Both the position numbers and the translations under genes were made by a program. The notes under the pieces were generated by a model. It saw only the letters and a program-made list of their open reading frames with translations. It made no database searches and was not told the origin of the DNA. 64,000 nucleotides of DNA, from sequence record PX915678.1. One strand, given 5' to 3'. The DNA is from a phage. Shown here one piece after another: positions 11,003 through 41,117 of the stretch (positions within the stretch are counted from its first letter, which is position 1; each line of letters begins with the position of its first letter).

Positions 11003-11221
11003 TTATTTCTCTAATATAAAATAAAAATCATCATCTGTTAAATGATACCGATAGTTTAATTCTACACCATTAGATTTAAAAGCGGTATCATACGGATTTT
11101 CTGGATCAATATCAATGTCAAGAGCTAAAACTTCCCTGAGATACATTTTAAGTAAATAGGGAATAGCTTCAACTTCAGGTATTTCTTCCAAGAATCCGGA
11201 GAGGTTAATCGTTAGCCTCAT
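11003..11221 (-). CDS. hypothetical protein
   Basis: 72-aa ORF immediately downstream of gene 55. Confidence 0.5.
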
Positions 11222-11762
11222 ATAAAAAATCCAAACTAGGAGAATCGTCTACAACACTTTTCTTTTCAGCCCCCGGTGTTCTATAGGTTGATTCTTCGTA
11301 ATGCGTCATTTTATCGTAGATGTCTTGAATAAAAGTTTCATCTACTAACGCAACCATATCGTCGTCACGACTGTCATAGACATTGTGAACGAAGTAACTG
11401 TATTTCTTTGCAACTTCCTTACGTTCTTTTTTAATACGTTGGACGAATGCATTAAAACAAGCTTGAGTTATATATGCATGTGGGTTTTTATATTTCGTTT
11501 CATCAAAATTATGAAGCCCCTTAATAGAAGCTTCTATACCATCTGCAATCATTTCTTGTTTCCAGGATTGGGTGTATCCTGAAAAGTTGAAACGTTTAGA
11601 TAAGCCTTCTGCAATAAGCATAATGGCTAATCCGATAGTATCATTCTGACGAACTACTTTATTTGGGTCTTTATTATTTGCTAATTCTGTTTTCCAATCA
11701 ATAATAGCTTGTAAAAGCTCTTTATTGTTTACGTAATTATATTTAGGCTTAGTTTCTGACAT
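11205..11762 (-). CDS. 55: late sigma factor gp55
   Basis: From ATG at 11762: [36 protein letters not shown]..., recognised as T4 gp55 (185 aa). Confidence 0.9.
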
Positions 11763-37109: not shown

Positions 37110-37640
<531 letters not shown>

Positions 37641-38096
37641 TTAAAAGAGGCTGTTCATTATTCGGTAAAGTGAAGGACCCATCACATATTGCCACTGAGT
37701 ACGAGGAATAAGGGCAAAAGCATCCATCTCTGGAATCATAACACCATCTTTATTTTCAAAATAAGACTCGCAATGGCAATTTCTAAACATCTCATGCTCT
37801 ACTGGAATCGTATAATAAAATAACTGCAAGTCTTTATTACTAGAATATTTAAATACACCTAGGTCTTCTAGAAGGTCTGAATTATAATCGATAAAACCAG
37901 TCTCTTCTGAGCATTCTCTTTTTGCAGCTTCCAGTGCATTCAAATCAAAACTTTCTACACGGCCCTTTGGAATATCCCAGCGATGTGCCATCATTCCAGG
38001 TTTACGAGAACCAGTAACTCGTCCCATAAATAAATCTTTATCTTCTGTCATAAAGATAATACCAGCTGATAGTGTTTTCATTTTAATTTCCTGCAT
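37641..38096 (-). CDS. nudE: Nudix hydrolase
   Basis: 151-aa ORF with Nudix box GRVESFDLNALEAAKRECSEETGF; position next to e. Confidence 0.8.
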   Translation of the reverse strand: MQEIKMKTLSAGIIFMTEDKDLFMGRVTGSRKPGMMAHRWDIPKGRVESFDLNALEAAKRECSEETGFIDYNSDLLEDLGVFKYSSNKDLQLFYYTIPVEHEMFRNCHCESYFENKDGVMIPEMDAFALIPRTQWQYVMGPSLYRIMNSLF

Positions 38097-38566
38097 TCAG
38101 TGATAAAGTTATTTAAATTTTGGGTATATTTCTTTTCATCAAAAATCTTTTGCTGCCTACGTAACCGCCATGGCATTTCAATGAACACGCACCATATTCC
38201 TGATATTACTGCTGTTATAAAAATATTAACAAGCAGAGTAAAAAGAGTCCAATCTCCTATTCTATCCATTGGATTTTTTCCAAAGAAATAAAATACGAAT
38301 GATGACACAGGAAGACTAATGATATACCATAAAAGCATATTCTTGCCTGTAAACCAATCAGCGTTCGTTAACTTAGCACGACCGTTTTGAATACATACGA
38401 ACTTATCATCTGTTACAGTAGATGGCTTAGCTGCTTGATATCCCATTCTAAACTCCCTAATTAATCGTTTCTTTGTATCTTCAGAACAGCCGCTCCAGTC
38501 AACTCTATCAACTGAAATGCCATCGTCCCCATCATCTAAATCATACCAGCGAGTTTTTAAAATCAT
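38078..38566 (-). CDS. membrane protein, e-region paralog 1
   Basis: Hydrophobic segments; C-terminus ...NFITECRKLK shared with next two ORFs; start uncertain. Confidence 0.45.
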   Translation of the reverse strand: MILKTRWYDLDDGDDGISVDRVDWSGCSEDTKKRLIREFRMGYQAAKPSTVTDDKFVCIQNGRAKLTNADWFTGKNMLLWYIISLPVSSFVFYFFGKNPMDRIGDWTLFTLLVNIFITAVISGIWCVFIEMPWRLRRQQKIFDEKKYTQNLNNFITECRKLK

Positions 38567-38937
38567 TTGATTTTCCTGCAATCACTCACAAACTCTTTCA
38601 TTGATTCATTTTCAATATAAGATATGTAGTTATTATATTCTTTTAATTGTATTTTGTAATCCTTTTTTCTTTGCCAATTTATTTTAAAATTATCATAATG
38701 AAAATATAAAATGATACTAAAGAATGAAAATAATGAAATTGCTATAGTATAATGAAGTTCACTCCAAACTTCTATTATATCTACTATACCGCTGACGTTA
38801 CTGCGGATGTTTAAAATAATACAGTCAATCGTTAATCCAATAAGACTACCAGCAAGAGCTGCAGCCAACGCCACAGCAAAAATTAAAAATGACTCATAAA
38901 AAGAATATTTGACTTTATTTAGTTTTGGCTTTTGCAT
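38563..38937 (-). CDS. membrane protein, e-region paralog 2
   Basis: 124-aa ORF; TM segments; C-terminus ...EFVSDCRKIK. Confidence 0.5.
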   Translation of the reverse strand: MQKPKLNKVKYSFYESFLIFAVALAAALAGSLIGLTIDCIILNIRSNVSGIVDIIEVWSELHYTIAISLFSFFSIILYFHYDNFKINWQRKKDYKIQLKEYNNYISYIENESMKEFVSDCRKIK

Positions 38938-39332
38938 CGTGATTCCTTAACAAATTTCATAATTTCATCAAATTCATACGCAGCAAGTTTAAGCTGATGT
39001 TCTTTTTTAATCTTTTTGCACTGGGCTTTCCAATCACGTACACGTTTACGATAGTGTCTTCCTTGATACCAGTATCCTACCCAATTTACAGGTACTAATA
39101 AAAACGGAACTACCAATGGAAGAATTAGTGTTGCTCCAAATATTACACCAGATTCAATATCAGTCATAACGTCTATAACCATTCCAGCAATCAGCAGAAT
39201 CACAAATGATACAGCTACCACAGGACCTATTAATACATCAGTAGGAATTAGCTGACGCTTTGGTTCATACTTCACAGGTTTACTTGGAAGGTATAGTGAT
39301 GGCTTTGACATATTCTCTACATTCCTTAACAA
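38919..39332 (-). CDS. membrane protein, e-region paralog 3
   Basis: 137-aa ORF; TM segments; C-terminus ...KFVKESRCKSQN. Confidence 0.5.
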   Translation of the reverse strand: MLRNVENMSKPSLYLPSKPVKYEPKRQLIPTDVLIGPVVAVSFVILLIAGMVIDVMTDIESGVIFGATLILPLVVPFLLVPVNWVGYWYQGRHYRKRVRDWKAQCKKIKKEHQLKLAAYEFDEIMKFVKESRCKSQN

Positions 39333-39894
39333 ATTTTTCTAATAATAAATCGCTTTCAAAATTGGGATTTTCCACGAATTTATCAAAAAGATCATCAACA
39401 GTAGTTAAGATATTCTTTTTGCTAAGAATACGTTTATTTTCATGCTTTGTTTCAGAATCAACTATAAGAGTAAAGAAATATTTCTTTCCCTGAAATTTTA
39501 CCGTAGTATCAATATAGAACAAATTTGACTTTTGTAAATTACGTTTAAACCATGCATCACTTAAACTATAAACGCCAAGATAATCATAATCGTCGTTTAA
39601 ATAACAAACCGTCCATTCAGGAGAAATGAAATCAGTAAATTCAACATCAAAATCACATGTCAATGAATGAATTGATTCAATACTGTTAATGAGTATTCCA
39701 GGACGTATTAAAGACTTTTTACCTCTAGAAAATCTTCCGGAAAGGCTTTCATCAGTTTCGTATGAAGACCCCCAATAGTAATTACGTCCTTCTGCCATGC
39801 GTTTAAGAGCATTTAGTAATTGGTCTGGAACATCAACCTGTCTTTGGAACTCTTCAAACATTGAATTGAAATCACTTTGCATTTTCATTTTCAT
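39280..39894 (-). CDS. hypothetical protein
   Basis: 204-aa ORF. Confidence 0.5.
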   Translation of the reverse strand: MKMKMQSDFNSMFEEFQRQVDVPDQLLNALKRMAEGRNYYWGSSYETDESLSGRFSRGKKSLIRPGILINSIESIHSLTCDFDVEFTDFISPEWTVCYLNDDYDYLGVYSLSDAWFKRNLQKSNLFYIDTTVKFQGKKYFFTLIVDSETKHENKRILSKKNILTTVDDLFDKFVENPNFESDLLLEKFVKECREYVKAITIPSK

Positions 39895-39911: not shown

Positions 39912-39933
39912 ATAAGGGGCCGAAGCCCCTTAT
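39912..39933 (-). terminator. GC stem-loop (AUAAGGGGC-UUCG-GCCCCUUAU)
   Basis: Inverted repeat between ORFs 39936-40529 and 39280-39894. Confidence 0.45.
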
Positions 39934-39935
39934 CA

Positions 39936-40529
39936 TTATTTCAGAGAATTAATGTATTCCTGAACATCGGCAGAGGTAGTTTCAACCCCAGAAATATTAC
40001 CGTTAAAGGTTTCAACTCGAGCAAGGGTATCTTCAATATCAACCTTAGTCAGTGCTGCAATTTCAACTACATCATCGGCAGTACTAATTCCAAGGGCATT
40101 TGCTGCACGAGTTTCACGGATATATTCCAATTTAACCGCAAGTTCTTGGCGAGCATCATCTAACTCAACTACTTTCTTGGCGATTTCAATTCGCATTTCA
40201 GCATAACCGTCAGCCTTAGTAGTCAACTGCTCAGCTGTTCGACGATATAGTAAACCGAGTTTAGCATGCATTGTTACATCTTGACCTTCGGAAAGAAGTT
40301 TACGAATTTCACGCTCTTTTGATTCGGCCTGTCGATTCTTTTCGACAATAAGTTCACGAATACGTTTTTCTTCATTAATAGATTTAACAGAAGCAGTTTT
40401 TAGATCTTTAATTTTATCAAGTAGTTTTGCTGCTGCAGCAGTATACTGTTCTTCAACAGATAAATTTTTAGCCATAGCAGAACCAAGTTTAGTGCGAATA
40501 AATTCAACAATTTTCTTCAGTGTGTTCAT
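39936..40529 (-). CDS. coiled-coil protein (PspA/IM30-like architecture?)
   Basis: 197-aa ORF, almost entirely heptad-rich charged helix. Confidence 0.45.
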
Positions 40530-40571
40530 AGTATTTCCTTAGGTTGATTAAAAATAAAATCTGTGGAAGAA

Positions 40572-41117
40572 TTATATCATACTATTTAAGAGATGTAAAC
40601 TATTTTTAATTTTACAAATTCGTTCAGCTTCTTCAACGGCGGCGGCGATAATGCTTTTAGCTATAGGAGTACTAATACTAGTAGCTTTTACACTTAACAC
40701 GATTTCTTTATCTTTACTAGGCCAACCCCATGATTTTTCACCATGAGTGCCTTTAATTACAGCAGACACCTCAAGTGAGCATCCACTGTCACATGTTTTT
40801 ACATTAACAACCCAAGGGTCACTTTTCTCAACCGATTTCTCAGCCGGTTTATCCCAGTAAATATTAAGAATACGTGGGACATCAAATTTAGCAGGGCAAA
40901 TCTTAACTGTAAGACCTTCGCTTTCTAGCCAATTAATAAGAGGGCGTTCATACATGCGGCGATGTGGGCTTTGGACTCGACAAGCCTTGTGCCCATTGCT
41001 TGCGGCTTCACTAAGCTGTTCTAATACCTGTTTTTGCATTATTGATAAGATATCATCAAAAGATTTTTCGGAAGTTTCATTCAGTTCGGTATAAAGAGAC
41101 ATAACGGTTTTCCTCAA
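40572..41117 (-). CDS. hypothetical protein
   Basis: 181-aa ORF. Confidence 0.5.
   Translation of the reverse strand: MRKTVMSLYTELNETSEKSFDDILSIMQKQVLEQLSEAASNGHKACRVQSPHRRMYERPLINWLESEGLTVKICPAKFDVPRILNIYWDKPAEKSVEKSDPWVVNVKTCDSGCSLEVSAVIKGTHGEKSWGWPSKDKEIVLSVKATSISTPIAKSIIAAAVEEAERICKIKNSLHLLNSMI

Follow-up and report, generated by a model that had tools for sequence, protein, structure and literature searches.

In enterobacteria, PspB and PspC hold PspA, and in Bacillus LiaI, a small protein with two transmembrane (TM) helices, anchors LiaH. In phage T4, gp43, gp33 and gp55 carry C-terminal tails that bind the sliding clamp, gp45. At the level of DNA, promoter-early stem-loop (PeSL) cassettes mediate shuffling in the hyperplastic regions of T4-type phages (PMC2839356, PMC4122927), and their crossovers have been mapped between the Shine-Dalgarno sequence (SD) and the -10 box (PMC2839356). 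Here we describe a locus that resembles each of these systems in part, located in a 64,000-nucleotide (nt) stretch of phage DNA (sequence record PX915678.1), the whole of which is referred to below as the window. Four consecutive genes on its minus strand, e.5, e.4, e.3 and e.2, end in variants of one short peptide, Phe-[Ile/Val]-x-x-Cys-Arg, and lie directly downstream of e.6. Comparisons of gene content and sequence show the motif to be a C-terminal signature, specific in position, that is carried by at least 12 protein families with no other relationship. These include soluble as well as 2-TM proteins and, in T4-like phages, are co-oriented and directly follow e.6. The general form of the motif, hydrophobic-[E/D]-x-[F/W]-[I/V]-x-x-C-[R/K] followed by 0–15 mostly basic residues, is predicted by structure modeling to lie at the tip of a helix in e.3.

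The C-terminal signature and its distribution

The window derives from a Tequatrovirus, and the region of interest is 98.9% identical to Shigella phage pSs-1 and 92–95% identical at the DNA level to ~480 other Tequatrovirus genomes (93.8% for RB51). The gene order e.6-e.5-e.4-e.3-e.2-nudE-e is identical in T4 (locus L004), and RB51, T4 and T2 annotate the same open reading frames (ORFs). Similarity and gene order together identify the three ORFs of a preliminary description of this locus as orthologues of T4 e.2, e.3 and e.4. The genes are known T4 ORFs, which databases list as hypothetical proteins or as predicted membrane proteins; in an old T4 record the ORFs of this region are called msp3 to msp8, with e.2, e.3, e.4 and e.5 corresponding to msp7, msp6, msp5 and msp4. 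All four match PHROG families (phrog_2203 for e.2, E = 2e-75; phrog_2330 for e.3; phrog_2604 for e.4; phrog_2607 for e.5; E-values span 7e-60 to 6e-110), and e.2 is present in 534 phage records by tblastn. No description of a shared C-terminal motif was found in the literature, and searches for e.2 to e.5 by name gave nothing relevant. The genes, in order of transcription, are:

39936..40529, minus strand: e.6, 197 residues, a PspA/Vipp1 (IM30) homologue directly upstream of the motif-bearing genes
39280..39894, minus strand: e.5, 204 residues, soluble, the fourth motif carrier, with tail ..LLLEKFVKECREYVKAITIPSK / ..EKFVKECREYVKAITIPSK
38919..39311, minus strand: e.4, 130 residues from its ATG, two TM helices, with tail ..IMKFVKESRCKSQN / ..KFVKESRCKSQN
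38563..38937, minus strand: e.3, 124 residues, two TM helices, the second extending as a long predicted cytoplasmic helix, with tail ..MKEFVSDCRKIK (EFVSDCRKIK)
38078..38566, minus strand: e.2, 162 residues, a 76-residue predicted cytoplasmic N-terminal domain and two TM helices, with tail ..LNNFITECRKLK (NFITECRKLK); its start is the ATG of an ATGA overlap

The pattern [FW][IV]xx[CS]R was counted within the last 26 residues of the 117 gene-like ORFs of the window and compared with 2000 residue shuffles. Four of the 117 genes contain it and these four, e.5, e.4, e.3 and e.2, are consecutive; since the shuffles average 0.079 and never exceed 2, the cluster is not attributable to chance. Among all six-frame ORFs of at least 50 residues in the window, the pattern is found six times, four of them in these consecutive tails. 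A consensus of 55 non-redundant tails has F (52 tails) or W (3) at position 0, I (42) or V (13) at +1, often K at +2, C at +4 and R (51) or K (4) at +5, followed by 0–15 residues that are often basic. L, I, F or V occupies position -3 in 51 of the 55, and -2 is mostly E, D or N; both positions lie outside the search pattern and therefore provide independent support. The spacing of positions -3, 0, +1 and +4 corresponds to one face of an alpha-helix. We define FIxxCR-tail proteins as those that have [FW][IV]xxC[RK] among their 26 C-terminal residues, with position -3 hydrophobic, a group that includes e.2, e.3 and e.5. A relaxed form is present in e.4 (FVKESRC), where Ser occupies the usual Cys position and a Cys follows two residues later.

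These results extend the preliminary description, which had reported three carriers, e.2, e.3 and e.4. All three, their quoted tails and their minus-strand orientation are confirmed; the set itself is larger, as e.5 ends in a fourth copy and is soluble, and the proposed 5' end of e.4 at 39332 is an upstream TTG without an SD, where T4 and RB51 use the ATG at 39311. Two observations had been named as potentially damaging to the idea of a shared tail, namely its loss in homologues and a failure of the ORFs to be translated, and neither was made. In alignments the motif is conserved out to Aeromonas phages with synonymous codon variation, and T4 proteomics detects e.2 to e.5 (PMC9697503). The same time-resolved transcriptome and proteome gives protein expression classes for e.2, e.3, e.4, e.5 and e.6 (PMC9697503, supplementary files 4 and 6), so T4 does translate these ORFs. 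Early RNA and early protein are assigned to e.4 and e.5, early RNA and middle protein to e.2, e.6 and nudE, and early RNA and late protein to e.3 (PMC9697503).

The tail recurs on a variety of small proteins in nine additional T4-like groups: Klebsiella phage Roth04, Dhakavirus, Kanagawavirus, Karamvirus, Mosigvirus, Biquartavirus 44RR, the Aeromonas phage groups Ishigurovirus and Ceceduovirus, and a further Dhakavirus-like phage. C-[IV] replaces C-R in the Ceceduovirus tails. In 16 loci with 246 ORFs, the strict form [FW][IV]xxC[RK] has 33 matches among the 26 C-terminal residues of the proteins and none elsewhere in them, and its carriers fall into at least 12 clusters unrelated by BLAST, or 16 when relaxed variants are included. 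A larger set of 42 IMG/VR loci, selected for holding e.6 and extending 6 kilobases to each side of it, gives the same picture. Motif ends are found in 0 of 596 ORFs upstream of e.6 and in 119 of 541 downstream; all 119 carriers lie on the e.6 strand, as do those of the window, which are likewise downstream, and there are no internal occurrences. The gene immediately following e.6 is a soluble e.5-like carrier in 37 of the 42 loci, and one to four more carriers follow it, mostly with two TM helices, for a range of 1 to 5 carriers per phage.

A scan of all IMG/VR contigs for the narrow pattern FIKECRK plus a stop codon returned eight stretches, among which the only real C-termini were T4-like e.2 and e.3, and so gives no indication that the tail exists beyond T4-like phages. 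The sole in-frame FIKECRK match outside T4-like e.x genes, ..ADARQFIKECRKW.. in an unrelated contig (L066 5742-5765), is inside a longer ORF and is probably due to chance. Two other kinds of Cys-ending proteins were observed in these loci. In leB and RB43 (L014 5124-6074; L012 5175-5897), the protein after e.6 ends ..DLVGDLC or ..DLVGELC, with a terminal Cys and no FIxxCR; the RB43 copy of e.6 is itself split. Small soluble proteins of a second tandem family have ..GWVSSSxxC or ..WYPSSC at their ends, the chain terminating in Cys, and each of their genes is followed by TAAGGAAA-n-ATG. These genes are interspersed among the FIxxCR genes of Mosigvirus, Dhakavirus, Kanagawavirus, Karamvirus and Ceceduovirus (L006 2857-3651; L008 6022-7266; L019 3191-4213; L009 6210-7288; L010 5802-6328; L013 36-575).

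The carriers and the neighboring e.6 protein

Hydropathy places two hydrophobic helices in each of the three membrane carriers of the window:

39078..39221, minus strand: TM helices of e.4, TM1 at 39165-39221 and TM2 at 39078-39134, by hydropathy
38701..38889, minus strand: TM helices of e.3, TM1 at 38833-38889 and TM2 at 38701-38757, with an acidic, predicted periplasmic loop between them
38180..38338, minus strand: TM helices of e.2, TM1 at 38282-38338 and TM2 at 38180-38236, with a short loop between them, by hydropathy and positive-inside count

The ends of e.2, e.3 and e.4 are rich in Lys and Arg and the inter-helix loops are acidic or neutral, which predicts an N-in/C-in topology with the tail in the cytoplasm. 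The three are early inner-membrane proteins of the phage, and each has two TM helices. An AlphaFold2 model of e.3, built from an alignment of e.3 and e.4 homologues, has a mean predicted local distance difference test (pLDDT) score of 88.5 and consists of helices at residues 13-49, 54-59 (short) and 62-123 (continuous). The motif, residues 116-121, occupies the far tip of a ~40-residue cytoplasmic extension of TM2 in this model. The alignment with e.3 suggests that TM2 of e.4 also continues as a cytoplasmic helix of ~40 residues. The AlphaFold2 model of e.5 is weak (pLDDT 58) and puts the tail within a terminal helix, residues 180-198. Searching predicted structures of viral proteins (BFVD) with the e.3 model returned only uncharacterized T4-like phage proteins.

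Kinship among the carriers is uneven. A homologue search started from e.3 by itself recovered just Tequatrovirus relatives. Iterative searching with e.3 (jackhmmer) recovers full-length e.4 via a Dhakavirus intermediate, and profile-profile comparison of the two (hhalign) gives 93% probability and E = 3e-7 over the last 39 columns. The two proteins have in common an N-terminal MxKPxL (MQKPKL, MSKPSL), two TM helices, a basic stretch or helix and the tail, and the Phe of the motif is the sole invariant column of their alignment. On this evidence e.3 and e.4 are paralogues that arose by tandem duplication. Only a 14-residue tail is common to e.2 and e.3 (55% probability), and only 7–11 columns to e.5 and the membrane carriers. 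The e.5 family itself reaches the Aeromonas phages (93% probability over 139 columns), and among ten of its sequences the only invariant columns are N100, F188 and C192, the latter two within the motif.

The proposal that conservation is confined to the extreme C-terminus accordingly applies to e.2 and e.5 relative to the rest and fails for e.3 and e.4, which are paralogous along their whole length. That paralogy, together with the existence of more than three carriers, some of them soluble, corrects the earlier picture of three different membrane anchors with nothing but the tail in common. The one or two N-terminal hydrophobic helices initially described are two in each protein, and in e.2 they are not N-terminal, as they occupy residues 77–129 behind a 76-residue domain. 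A cytoplasmic location of the tail, also suggested at the outset, agrees with the positive-inside prediction and with the presence of the motif on soluble e.5.

Family searches are of little help in assigning functions to the carriers. For e.2 to e.5, nothing informative came out of Pfam, NCBIfam, PADLOC or PDB-sequence searches, and none of the PADLOC defense and counter-defense profiles matched e.2 to e.6. Precomputed Pfam accessions exist for homologues of e.4 (PF26873) and for e.5 (PF26876). Several database names are flagged here as unsupported: 'sulfurtransferase', 'DNA primase' and, for e.6, 'host specificity protein'. The first is attached to e.3 or e.4 in some NCBI or submitter records (P0013, P0031, P0103, P0105, P0126, P0130) and the second to one e.3 (P0028). 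An identity as rhodanese sulfurtransferase was rejected, as no Pfam or NCBIfam rhodanese domain is present and the e.3 model is an all-helical 2-TM hairpin; likewise, Pfam, NCBIfam and the structure model lend the primase name no support. The Cys-Arg-Lys triplet recalls the rhodanese active-site loop, and the name 'sulfurtransferase' may have spread from it.

The neighboring e.6 protein is more informative. Alone, the window sequence has no Pfam or PDB match, and a profile of ten e.6 sequences gives weak but collinear matches to Vipp1. The homologue from Cronobacter phage leB matches PF04012 (PspA_IM30) over residues 2-144 with E = 1.5e-4, at 21.9 bits, below the 33.9-bit cut-off. An exhaustive HMMER search yielded 36 representatives of the e.6 family. 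With a 28-sequence profile derived from these, Vipp1 and PspA chains are the top-ranked PDB matches (E = 8e-5 to 2e-3, residues 1-140 against 1-141), and PF04012 is matched by 4 of the 28 family members, the best at E = 8.9e-10. A genome announcement reports an HHpred probability of 99.9% for a T4 e.6 homologue against E. coli PspA (4WHE_A; PMC7862958). These matches indicate that e.6 is a PspA/Vipp1-type protein, which was already known in outline. Many records name e.6 'host specificity protein (ACLAME 1259)', and no search performed here supports that name. The N-terminal helix of e.6 (..VEFIRTK..) is faintly like the tail, a similarity too weak to use.

A possible docking tip and its alternatives

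The conserved tip may be a common docking element, a reading to which we give an even chance. Several different membrane anchors and one soluble protein would then engage a single cytoplasmic partner through it. The most economical candidate for that partner is the e.6 polymer, which we put forward tentatively by analogy with PspA, held by PspB and PspC, and with LiaH, held by LiaI. It is conceivable, if somewhat more doubtful, that T4-like phages run their own PspA/ESCRT-III-type membrane system, in which small 2-TM anchors (e.2, e.3, e.4 and their analogues) and a soluble adaptor, e.5, recruit, position or switch the e.6 polymer via the Phe-Ile-x-x-Cys-Arg tip, with anchors gained and lost at the tail junctions. 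If so, each phage lineage could tune the protection or remodeling of the host inner membrane during infection. The docking proposal predicts that the tails bind a common partner, possibly e.6, and its confirmation would mean that phages manage the host inner membrane with an ESCRT-III-like machinery of their own. The genes e.2 to e.6 are conserved T4 early genes without an assigned function, and the signature, by linking a dozen ORFan families beside a phage PspA homologue, makes them a candidate functional module.

Several observations weigh against this interpretation. First, the link to e.6 is one of synteny, measured in loci that had been selected for holding e.6, and a cluster expanding by tandem duplication could adjoin e.6 by history alone. 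Second, the Pseudotevenviruses RB43 and leB have e.6 but no nearby motif protein. Third, the motif itself varies at its most characteristic residues: CC2 has I or V where the motif Arg stands, and the e.4 lineage has S, I or V at the canonical Cys. Fourth, amphipathicity of the four window tails is modest (shuffle p = 0.013 to 0.19), and Pfam and NCBIfam scans of e.2, e.3 and e.4 give no PspB, PspC or LiaI family. Finally, e.6 has no Cys, so that the invariant Cys of the motif cannot pair with one in e.6.

The last point also counts in favor of a site for self-assembly or cofactor binding, in which the long C-terminal helices would bundle, as homo-oligomers or among e.5, e.4, e.3 and e.2, and the single invariant Cys of each chain, next to the Arg, would bind a metal ion or cluster or act as a redox or thiol site. 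A lone 40-residue helix is unlikely to remain monomeric, the tail combines exactly one invariant Cys with a hydrophobic stripe at -3, 0, +1 and +4, and a single run of overlapping genes always expresses several carriers together. Such an assembly is nevertheless an unlikely explanation of the motif, because the number of carriers varies from 1 to 5 per phage with no fixed stoichiometry, the e.4 lineage dispenses with Cys at its canonical position, and the motif contains no second ligand residue.

Less probable again is a regulatory tag that sets the timing of early proteins, whether a C-terminal degron, a signal for a host protease or chaperone consisting of a basic C-terminal end after a hydrophobic patch, or a modification site (ADP-ribosylation of the Arg by T4 Alt, ModA or ModB, or modification of the Cys). 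The strictly C-terminal position of the motif, with 0–15 residues after the Arg and a basic end, would suit such a signal, as would its presence on unrelated early proteins. The T4 carriers also differ in protein class (early, middle or late) despite early RNA (PMC9697503), a hint of post-transcriptional control. Known C-terminal degrons, however, are at the very end of the chain, whereas here 0–15 residues intervene and the conserved core lies inside a helix.

Tail junctions and comparison with known systems

Two further explanations place the origin of the motif at the level of the nucleic acid rather than the protein. The genes from e.5 onward form one overlapping run, e.5-e.4-e.3-e.2-nudE, with overlaps of 32 nt (e.5/e.4), 19 nt (e.4/e.3), 4 nt (e.3/e.2) and 4 nt (e.2/nudE, ATGA), and the tails fall at its junctions:

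39316..39333, minus strand: e.5 motif codons, FVKECR; AAG GAA is an SD-like purine run before the e.4 ATG at 39311
38934..38954, minus strand: e.4 motif codons, FVKESRC; AAG GAA is the SD of e.3, and CG|ATG|C holds the e.3 start at 38937
38575..38592, minus strand: e.3 motif codons, FVSDCR; AGG AAA (Arg-Lys) is the SD of e.2, whose ATG at 38566 lies in the AAATGA overlap
38090..38107, minus strand: e.2 motif codons, FITECR; AGG AAA is the SD of nudE, whose ATG is at 38081
37641..38081, minus strand: nudE, a Nudix hydrolase (PF00293, E = 2.4e-12), the final gene of the run

The SD and ATG of the next gene are thus encoded within each window tail, and the ATG begins 17–26 nt past the Phe codon in all four. 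Codon choices such as the rare AGG for Arg are explained by the SD that lies on those codons. The motif could, on this basis, be a by-product of dual coding, in which the last codons serve as SD, spacer, ATG and part of the N-terminus of the next gene and, together with tandem duplication, mimic a conserved peptide; the 16 identical nucleotides common to the e.5 and e.4 tails fit this view. Comparison across phages makes it very unlikely. In 43 motif instances from 13 phages, Phe is encoded by TTT and TTC and Cys by TGT and TGC, the Ile and Val codons vary, and all six Arg codons are used. The SD lies on the Lys-Glu codons in Mosigvirus e.3 and on the Arg-Lys codons in Tequatrovirus e.3, while the peptide F-[IV]-x-[ED]-C-R-K is the same in both. 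Carriers in Roth04, PG7, 44RR, CC2 and ZPAH1 do not overlap the next gene, from which they are separated by gaps of 2–243 nt, and the motif is kept where spacers measure 29–243 nt. It is absent from the 596 ORFs upstream of e.6 and from the other 113 window genes, though overlaps are common there. Because codons vary, the SD shifts and non-overlapping carriers keep the peptide, the motif is selected at the protein level, and an origin in the SD alone is largely refuted by the codon data. An origin in RNA structure was rejected, as the four junction RNAs fold no better than shuffled sequences (z = -0.2 to +1.0).

The junctions have a second property, evident from comparisons of closely related phages. 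T2, PP01 and JE01 lack e.2, and their e.3 has a chimeric end, ..SDCRK|LK, that runs directly into nudE. The junction DNA of these phages matches e.3 as far as TGCAGGAAA and the e.2 tail beyond it, which places the crossover within the repeated junction (T2, L005 2850-2865; PP01, L002 975-990). In T4, e.2 is frameshifted to 102 residues with the remainder in the +1 frame (L004 2860-3330); given this split and the absence of the gene from T2, PP01 and JE01, e.2 is dispensable and decaying in some lineages. Similarly, Dhakavirus CLBP2 lacks the e.4 that pEC-M719-6WT.2 has, and its e.5 tail, ..AKEVQ|NGTA, combines parts of both the e.5 and the e.4 tail found in the latter phage. The crossover, between the e.5/e.4 and e.4/e.3 junctions, occurred inside TAAAGRGGT..AATG, which comprises SD and ATG (L008 5650-5690 compared with L019 2470-2500 and 2820-2860). 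Repetition of the unit tail-SD-ATG-first codons allows a single gene to be lost in register, and the reverse event would produce a tandem duplication. The sequences record two independent gene-precise losses, of e.2 and of e.4, by junction-to-junction recombination, and duplication by the reverse event fits the origin of e.3 and e.4. Whatever the function of the tails, these crossovers are a concrete case of in-frame duplication and deletion of overlapping phage genes.

The repeated junction might instead be retained chiefly for recombination, as a linker that does in coding sequence what the PeSL cassettes do between genes and lets hyperplastic-region genes shuffle, duplicate and vanish in register. 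Such a role would accommodate the two independent indels with crossovers inside it (e.2 in Tequatrovirus, e.4 in Dhakavirus), the borders of the e.3/e.4 duplication and the documented PeSL-mediated shuffling in T4-type phages (PMC2839356), but it is scarcely credible, since selection for evolvability is weak, the homologous stretches measure only about 9–20 nt, conservation of the peptide rather than the DNA across genera goes unexplained, and the indels look more like an effect of the repeats than the reason for them.

Two elements near e.6 and a third in the nudE-e spacer deserve mention in this context:

40571..40599, minus strand: match to an early-type promoter upstream of e.6, TTTACA-17-TATAAT with TG; T4 record L13089 has an annotated promoter at the corresponding position
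39912..39933, minus strand: GC-rich hairpin between e.6 and e.5, a putative stem-loop in L13089
About 37610-37635: late-promoter box TATAAATA in the nudE-e spacer

The hairpin and the near-consensus early promoter flank e.6 as a PeSL-like pair. The tail junctions were considered as PeSL cassettes in their own right and rejected, as the genes overlap, the junction RNAs fold like shuffles and the only promoter-plus-hairpin elements are those flanking e.6. They resemble PeSLs in having a repeated border sequence and in-register gain and loss of genes, with breakpoints inside the repeated border, here at SD-ATG. They differ in that PeSLs are intergenic and consist of a promoter and a hairpin, whereas the tail junctions have no intergenic DNA, promoter or stable hairpin and are coding sequence under selection at the protein level.

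The gp45-binding tails offer a parallel to the docking proposal, as both systems place one short C-terminal peptide on unrelated proteins of one phage, and in the gp45 system all of these dock to a single partner. The sequences differ, and the FIxxCR carriers are mostly membrane proteins clustered in one gene run. Within the window, gp55, the late sigma factor (11205-11762, minus strand), ends in the known clamp-binding tail, a same-phage precedent for shared docking peptides.

PspB, PspC and LiaI are the nearest counterparts of the membrane carriers. Like them, e.2, e.3 and e.4 are small, predicted inner-membrane proteins encoded beside, and in the same direction as, a PspA-family gene, with a cytoplasmic part that may be able to contact a PspA-like protein. 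Unlike them, e.2 to e.5 are phage-encoded and show no sequence similarity to models of the bacterial proteins, and several carriers are present per phage, including the soluble e.5, all with the Cys-Arg tip.

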